Origin: Escherichia coli
GTDB taxonomy: Bacteria > Pseudomonadota > Gammaproteobacteria > Enterobacterales > Enterobacteriaceae
DNA length: 10,891 nt
Strand: one strand, 5' to 3'
Assembly (NCBI RefSeq): GCF_003334355.1
Contig: NZ_QOWP01000055.1
The notes under the pieces were generated by a model. That model did no database searches. It worked only from the letters and a program-made list of their open reading frames with translations, and was not told the origin of the DNA. Below, one piece after another: positions 1 through 497 of this stretch. Every line of letters begins with the position of its first letter. The first letter of the stretch is position 1. Made by a program: the position numbers and the translations under genes.

Positions 1-104
1 ATTATATCGAATGTGATTACAATCGGTGGCGGCGGCACAGTTGGTGTGGCGGCCTCAGTCCGGAACAATTTGAAAACCAGAACCTCGCTTAGGCCTGTGT
101 CCAT
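1..104 (-). CDS. Partial ORF running off the left edge (MDTGLSEVLVFKLFRTEAATPTVPPPPIVITFDI...); possibly the continuation of the 120..497 ORF
   Basis: Hand translation of the minus strand: after the TGA at 122..120 the same frame stays open to position 1, with an ATG at 104..102; the other two minus frames hit stops at once. No obvious Shine-Dalgarno before that ATG. Confidence 0.3.
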   Translation of the reverse strand, partial: MDTGLSEVLVFKLFRTEAATPTVPPPPIVITFDI

Positions 105-119
105 ATTACGTGGGTAGGA

Positions 120-497
120 TCAGTCCACCAGCGCATGTGCCACACCATACTGAAATGCGAGGCTGAAAAATTGCTGCGCCCACACATCCAGTCGGCTCCC
201 CTCCATGTCGATATTTTCTGCATATTCCCTGATTTTTGCCGGCGTTTCCTCACTCAATACTGTCGGCTCTGCAAATATGCGCCCAATATTTTGCTTGATG
301 CTTTCTTCATACACAGGAAGTAGCGTAGCCACAGACAGGCGTTTTTTATAAGCGTCTTCATCTTCGTTAGGCCATTTTGGGAGATAATTTTCCCCCTGCC
401 TGCGCATTTCAAGCGTACCGCCCATCAGTGCGTCGTTAATATCCCACGCCTCCAGCATATCGTTATAGTCGAGGTTGGGTGTTGATATATCAGCCAT
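120..497 (-). CDS. Hypothetical protein immediately downstream of the large terminase; possibly the N-terminal part of a portal gene cut short by an in-frame TGA
   Basis: 125-aa ORF whose ATG (497..495) sits 2 nt after the large-terminase stop (502..500). The position is where portal genes sit in terminase-portal modules, but 125 aa is far too short for a portal. Sequence resemblance to portal N-termini is a weak recollection. Confidence 0.45.
   Translation of the reverse strand: MADISTPNLDYNDMLEAWDINDALMGGTLEMRRQGENYLPKWPNEDEDAYKKRLSVATLLPVYEESIKQNIGRIFAEPTVLSEETPAKIREYAENIDMEGSRLDVWAQQFFSLAFQYGVAHALVD

Follow-up and report, generated by a model that had tools for sequence, protein, structure and literature searches.

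Insertion of the 1258-bp IS3 is recognised by the TG...CA ends of the element, by imperfect terminal inverted repeats of about 40 bp and by a 3-bp duplication of the target. The transposase, a DDE-domain enzyme, is synthesised via programmed −1 frameshifting, and transposition in the family is of the copy-out-paste-in type, with the target duplicated over 3 bp. The cryptic lambdoid prophages Rac, DLP12 and Qin have had late genes pseudogenised by insertion of such mobile elements, and decay comparable to that described here is seen where IS3 lies within the lysozyme gene rrrD of strain HeN100, where it lies within a Q-like DUF1133 gene of GDSC2BY4G, and where an IS1203-like element occupies nt ~141 of the portal gene in CH459 (L035:2737-4188). 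The present locus is at one end of a 10,891-nt stretch of Escherichia coli DNA, the window (contig NZ_QOWP01000055.1), and it likewise involves a prophage late gene. The ORF that follows the large terminase gene in it is almost certainly what IS3 has left of a portal gene in a Rac-type lambdoid prophage, a pseudogene that arose when the element transposed into codon 125/126. Disruption by IS3 of a late gene in a Rac-type cryptic prophage is already known, and as such this is ordinary, routine prophage decay. Unlike the cryptic prophage cases, however, the combination of site, portal codon 125/126, and orientation seen in the window is present in none of 5426 complete E. coli genomes.

The ORF in question (120..497, minus strand) begins with an ATG at 497 and has 125 codons before a TGA at 122..120. 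An initial annotation, made from the sequence alone, had expected a portal of several hundred residues at this position, and rightly so, as the 125 aa form the first part of a 468-aa portal. They match residues 1-125 of WP_000763701.1 (468 aa) without exception (100% identity), and positions 123..497 of the minus strand are thus a remnant comprising codons 1-125 of a 468-codon DUF4055/PHROG 145 gene. At the nucleotide level the stretch 123..1400 is matched in 779 complete E. coli genomes, in which a terminase large subunit is annotated and then a "DUF4055 domain-containing protein", and across these 1278 nt the window departs from intact copies at a single base (566). The intact gene in strain 7/2 is 1407 nt long (468 aa). 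It is full-length in 730 of the 755 complete E. coli genomes that carry it, and deposited Escherichia phage records, e.g. ON470614.1, hold the 468-aa gene at full length.

That the intact gene specifies a portal is indicated by its match to the PHROG 145 "portal protein" profile (E=1.8e-165, profile positions 7-481 of 493), by alignment of its residues 49-458 to portal proteins of solved structure in the PDB (E about 7e-18), and by the annotation "portal protein" in phage HK639 and in Klebsiella and Erwinia phages whose proteins are 67-79% identical. The 125-aa ORF matches the same profile with E=1.9e-44, at positions 7-130 of 493 only. As the match is 7-130 for the ORF in the window and 7-481 for the intact homologue, the truncation is real and not due to chance. 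The ORF is homologous to the portal family (PHROG 145 / Pfam DUF4055) and falls far short of its full length; it is a gene fragment and no functional member of the family.

The point at which portal sequence ends is sharply defined. In the sense of the portal, the intact gene reads ...GCG CTG GTG GAC TAT CCA CGA ACG GAT ATG... and the window reads ...GCG CTG GTG GAC TGA TCC TAC CCA CGT AAT ATG.... Base-by-base alignment has complete identity to the intact portal through GAC(T) and identity at noise level beyond it; codon 126 of the intact portal is TAT, with the reading then YPRTDMKEIR.

What lies on the other side is IS3. Positions 1..122 (plus strand) are the last 122 nt of the element, about nt 1137-1258, at 100% identity, and the edge of the window cuts them. 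A reference copy inside rrrD of strain HeN100 is 1258 bp long, has TG...CA ends and is flanked by the 3-bp duplication GTC; it starts TGATCTTACCC and finishes GGGTAGGATCA, and its left and right inverted repeats (IRL and IRR) pair. Identity of the window to this reference stops exactly at position 122, where the boundary reads ...GGGTAGGATCA followed directly by GTCCACC. Comparison of IRL and IRR in the reference copy places the right terminal inverted repeat, imperfect and about 40 nt long, at 83..122 (plus strand), ending ...GGATCA-3'. Before the end of the element, translation of frame +3 gives the C-terminus of the IS3 transposase at 3..92 (plus strand), 29 codons (YIECDYNRWRRHSWCGGLSPEQFENQNLA) and a stop. 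These 29 codons are identical to the annotated IS3 transposase, and the end of its CDS at 2592 in the HeN100 locus (L002) corresponds to position 92 of the window. Within the window, nucleotide identity to E. coli IS3 extends over 122 of its 1258 nt and the terminal inverted repeat with its TG...CA end is at the boundary with the flanking DNA; there is no difference within the visible 122 nt, the remaining element and the second junction being beyond the window. Of 5426 complete E. coli genomes, 3990 contain the same 122 nt, in a median of three copies that underlie features annotated "IS3-like element IS3 family transposase". The genes that adjoin these copies are unrelated to one another, e.g. 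rrrD, hokD and HK97 gp10.

The TGA that ends the 125-aa ORF (120..122, minus strand) is the first three bases of the right inverted repeat of IS3 (TGATCCTACCC...), where the intact gene has TAT. The GTC next to it (123..125, plus strand; GAC in portal sense) is presumed to be one copy of the 3-bp target-site duplication; the duplications flanking other IS3 copies are GTC in HeN100 and GTG in strain PSS-12. A resemblance of the target to the IS3 ends, with insertion being directed by it, was considered and rejected, as an equal score is reached by 10% of the 60-nt tiles of a 48-kb control.

The identities of the two sides, and the exact base at which they meet, are direct observations. A standard 3-bp-duplicating transposition, by an element that is presumably complete, would account for them as follows. 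IS3 would have entered the portal gene at GAC (nt 373-375) in antisense orientation, with its right inverted repeat coming to lie against the 5′ part of the gene. Translation from the portal start passes codon 125 (GAC) and stops at the TGA with which the IS3 end opens, and the frame after this TGA is that of the antisense strand of the C-terminal part of the transposase gene, unrelated to the portal. The truncated product keeps about a quarter of the portal without nearly all of the conserved core, and it would be unable to form a dodecameric ring since almost the whole region aligning to solved portals is missing. The prophage copy could then probably neither build nor fill heads unless another portal were supplied. 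Inactivation of the portal gene, which the initial annotation had proposed, is borne out, though via insertion of a mobile element.

The cause that had been proposed was one nonsense change, for example from TGG or CGA to TGA, within a portal gene that is otherwise continuous. The observations that led to it are sound. After the TGA at 122..120 the same frame is open to the window edge, where it reads SYPRNMDTGLSEVLVFKLFRTEAATPTVPPPPIVITFDI; the other two minus-strand frames are closed by stops within 4-10 codons after the TGA; and no AGGAGG-like motif, and so no Shine-Dalgarno, is found 5′ of the downstream ATG, which lies six codons beyond the stop. However, openness over this length is no more than chance would give. 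A random frame of 39 codons stays open in 15% of cases and 38% of 39-codon windows are open in the same antisense frame of IS3, so that nothing can be read from the openness of the frame downstream of the TGA; in a full IS3, the antisense frame that continues the ORF is 96 codons long. There is also a resemblance of D*SYPRNMD (the asterisk being the stop) to the true DYPRTDM, which could suggest a portal reading on both sides of the TGA. It comes from a short nucleotide similarity, CTAyCCACG...ATATG, is not significant, 10% of the control tiles reaching its score, and is ascribed to chance. Against a substitution, the intact codon 126 is TAT, which excludes a change of TGG or CGA to TGA at this position; at the stop codon the DNA ceases to match the intact gene, identity falling from 100% to noise, and the 119 nt downstream are 100% IS3. 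The continuation SYPRNMDTGLSEV belongs to the antisense frame of IS3 and not to the portal, so that the TGA is spanned by no homologue. The probability that a nonsense mutation is responsible is accordingly negligible. Lesions of the frameshift or point type, as had been envisaged, do exist in other genomes: the portal alleles L016:2611-4017 and L017:2611-4017 are split into ORFs of 105 or 107 aa and of 338 aa, with no IS.

Two further possibilities had been raised, that there are two genuine genes, or that the TGA is decoded by programmed read-through (or as selenocysteine), in either case with a functional product. The exact 125-aa product does occur on many contigs, annotated as a hypothetical protein, as would be expected of a stand-alone gene. 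These records are, however, fragments of the same portal, derived either from the IS3 junction or from a portal/tail-fibre deletion, and RefSeq labels the equivalent an incomplete pseudogene. No 125-aa gene was seen in intact, inducible phages, the phage records carrying the 468-aa gene. As for recoding, Rfam and tRNA scans of the whole window gave no match, so no Rfam element accompanies the TGA, and the frame downstream is antisense transposase sequence that is found in every IS3 copy. It is scarcely conceivable that either of these readings is correct, and the insertion of IS3 into the portal gene accounts for the same features. An in-frame stop after which the same frame reopens is the standard look of an insertion of an IS3-family element, because such elements start with TGA and are often open in the antisense frame; here it provides no evidence for recoding, for a split gene or for a nonsense mutation. 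For annotation, the implication is that "hypothetical protein" OWD73650.1 and fragments named "DNA-binding protein, partial" are pieces of portal pseudogenes. [Several N-terminal portal fragments (P0004, P0006, P0008, P0011-P0015) bear the latter name at NCBI.]

A junction with a repeated element in a draft assembly raises the issue of whether the portal contig was chimerically joined to a collapsed IS3 repeat. The window starts and ends inside IS elements, as short-read contigs do. Its far end (10804..10891, plus strand) is the first ~88 nt of IS421, of the IS4 family, as judged by identity to strain PSS-12, in which the counterpart is the left inverted repeat and the start of the annotated IS421 transposase (the inverted-repeat arms being at L021 19664-19700 and 20994-21030). 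Divergence of the window from its intact relatives begins at ~10728. As IS elements bound it on both sides, the window looks like a short-read contig, probably of a draft assembly that breaks off at repeats. But a true junction would give just such a contig end, running briefly into a repeat, and the break sits precisely at the terminal base of IS3. Moreover, contig LYBG01000438.1 of E. coli assembly GCA_002190165.1 is 100% identical to the minus strand of the window over 10,396 nt and carries the identical portal/IS3 junction, breaking 21 nt into the IS; the ORF there is the one deposited as hypothetical protein OWD73650.1. The junction therefore exists in an independent assembly, and an artefact is very improbable. 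A 131-nt probe for the junction found no counterpart in the 5426 complete E. coli genomes, and an exact 42-mer found none in the GTDB representative genomes. The predicted far-side junction was not found in JGI metagenomes, nor was either the near or the far side found in IMG/VR.

With insertion of IS3 as the preferred reading, there is still the matter of what lies beyond the element. The junction may be one end of a deletion or rearrangement associated with IS3, with the rest of the portal gene, and perhaps the head and tail genes, missing or elsewhere. The closest complete genome, E. coli PSS-12 (NZ_AP027697.1), bears on this. It has 5 differences from the window over 141..10891, and the two have in common the junction with IS421 and, at 566, a base that is otherwise private. 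Its locus is a Rac prophage at the canonical site (ompN-uspF-ydfK-pinR ... ralR-xisR-int), with trkG, and is heavily decayed by insertions of IS1203, IS3, IS421 and IS1. The 3′ part of its portal gene is cut at nt 1141 by IS1203, and all head and tail genes up to pinR are lost. In other relatives too there are IS-bounded deletions that start in the portal gene, e.g. with ISKpn26 at about nt 507; that allele, in PK8277 (L033:2750-4375, portal nt ~507), has a deletion reaching the tape-measure gene. Exact look-ups of the C-terminal products expected if the far side were retained are in keeping with a loss: for the predicted 338-aa C-terminal portal product only the frameshift alleles, and not the lineage of the window, were found, and for the 258-aa C-terminal product of the PSS-12 type there was no match. 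Failure to find the far side is nevertheless weak evidence, as exact-sequence look-ups of C-terminal products miss variants and genes cut by contig edges.

PSS-12 also provides the counterexample. The same portal gene there contains a complete IS3 (L021:7745-9002) at nt 353-355, in the opposite orientation and with the duplication GTG, which is a simple insertion. A deletion or rearrangement starting at the junction in the window is, on balance, a possible but unlikely complication of the IS3 insertion. Each of the two alleles is uninterrupted at the IS3 site of the other, so the insertions in the window and in PSS-12, 20 bp apart, are independent events in sister lineages; and the presence in PSS-12 of a complete IS3 with its 3-bp duplication in the same gene shows IS3 to be active in this lineage. 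IS elements have reached the neighbouring genes of this module as well, IS903B, IS5 and an IS3-family element being in or next to the terminase genes in other genomes (H191-H193).

The 125-aa product has a second origin. An IS-free allele with the same product is present in five complete genomes (e.g. BKQWHE, NZ_CP170298.1, L015:12040-12050) and in many draft and metagenome contigs (L003-L011, e.g. L003:10373-10390). In it the portal gene after ...GGTGGACTA is fused to the interior of a tail-fibre gene (...ACGGGAAATAC), with creation of a TAA, and all head and tail genes are deleted. [The sequence AACGGGAAATAC is likewise of the tail fibre.] Where portal and fibre sequence meet, comparison with an intact fibre gene and an intact portal reveals the 3 bp CTA as a microhomology; an ordinary illegitimate deletion would account for this. 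The portal endpoint is within 1-3 bp of the IS3 junction in the window.

This proximity recalls the finding that IS3 together with the IS-excision enhancer gives deletions that remove the IS entirely and start exactly adjacent to IRR (Kanai et al., NAR 2022, PMC8860574). The natural IS-free allele resembles these products in that it ends within 1-3 bp of the IRR junction in the window; it differs from them in the CTA microhomology at its join and in its setting, a different mosaic prophage at att-lambda/bio, adjoining ybhB-bioABFCD-uvrB. It also has a second deletion, in terS, and is without the 566 SNP of the window. Descent of the IS-free allele from that in the window is unsupported. Four SNP alleles that they have in common reflect a common haplotype, which is also that of many intact copies, and the missing 566 SNP, the other mosaic and locus and the CTA microhomology speak against it. 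No intermediate of insertion-deletion-excision (IDE) between the two alleles was found. The coincidence of endpoints is suggestive.

Potentially, portal nt 353-378 could be a preferred IS3 target and the fusion of the L003 type a natural footprint of IS3 insertion, deletion and excision, but this must be considered doubtful. If it were so, IS3 would once have been at the site it occupies in the window and would have been lost later along with head and tail genes amounting to about 20 kb, and the allele in the window would represent the otherwise invisible 'insertion' stage. Only in that case would the locus have a wider consequence. About a dozen distinct truncation events affect the portal gene among the 755 complete genomes, with breakpoints at nt ~141 (IS1203-like), 355 (IS3), 376 (the deletion), ~507 (ISKpn26) and 1141 (IS1203), and others. 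For three events to fall within 23 bp, a scan statistic gives a rough estimate of about 0.2, and the clustering is therefore not compelling; a hot spot is unproven.

Database fragments of 123 and 129 aa, which might have been further rearrangements near this point, were rejected as such, their contigs stopping cleanly at nt 371 and 389 with no foreign sequence. These contigs (L022-L032) end just 5′ of third-codon positions. Clean endings of this kind in metagenome and Logan contigs are probably due to SNP branching, in assembly graphs, between co-occurring prophage haplotypes.

The other genes noted in the window are, like the portal, on the minus strand. The large terminase subunit gene (500..1810), identified by matches to PHROG terminase large subunit profiles and by the annotation in relatives, is apparently intact. 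Before it is the gene for the small terminase subunit (1782..2876; PHROG 51, E=1.7e-75, and annotation in relatives). The Trk potassium transporter gene trkG (4921-6396) has the lysis cassette on one side and the ParB-like and terminase genes on the other. It is a hallmark cargo gene of Rac-type prophages and is kept in every decayed allele seen, including those without head and tail genes; the present locus is one further case of IS-driven decay in Rac-type prophages that retain it.

Just upstream of the small terminase gene there is a ParB/Srx-like gene and then a gene for a 317-aa protein, the pair occupying 3067-4020 and 3992-4783. The 317-aa protein matches PHROG 842, labelled beta-glucosyl-HMC-alpha-glucosyltransferase, as well as Pfam TAGT, and is named 'GREB1-related protein' in RefSeq. 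From these matches, the two genes could be an accessory pair for DNA modification or packaging. Between the PHROG 842 gene and terS is a small ORF (2880-3131), listed with 83 aa and annotated with 69 aa in relatives. It matches part of the terminase small subunit profile phrog_309 (E=8e-23), and could represent a second TerS-like gene, split or reduced to a remnant.
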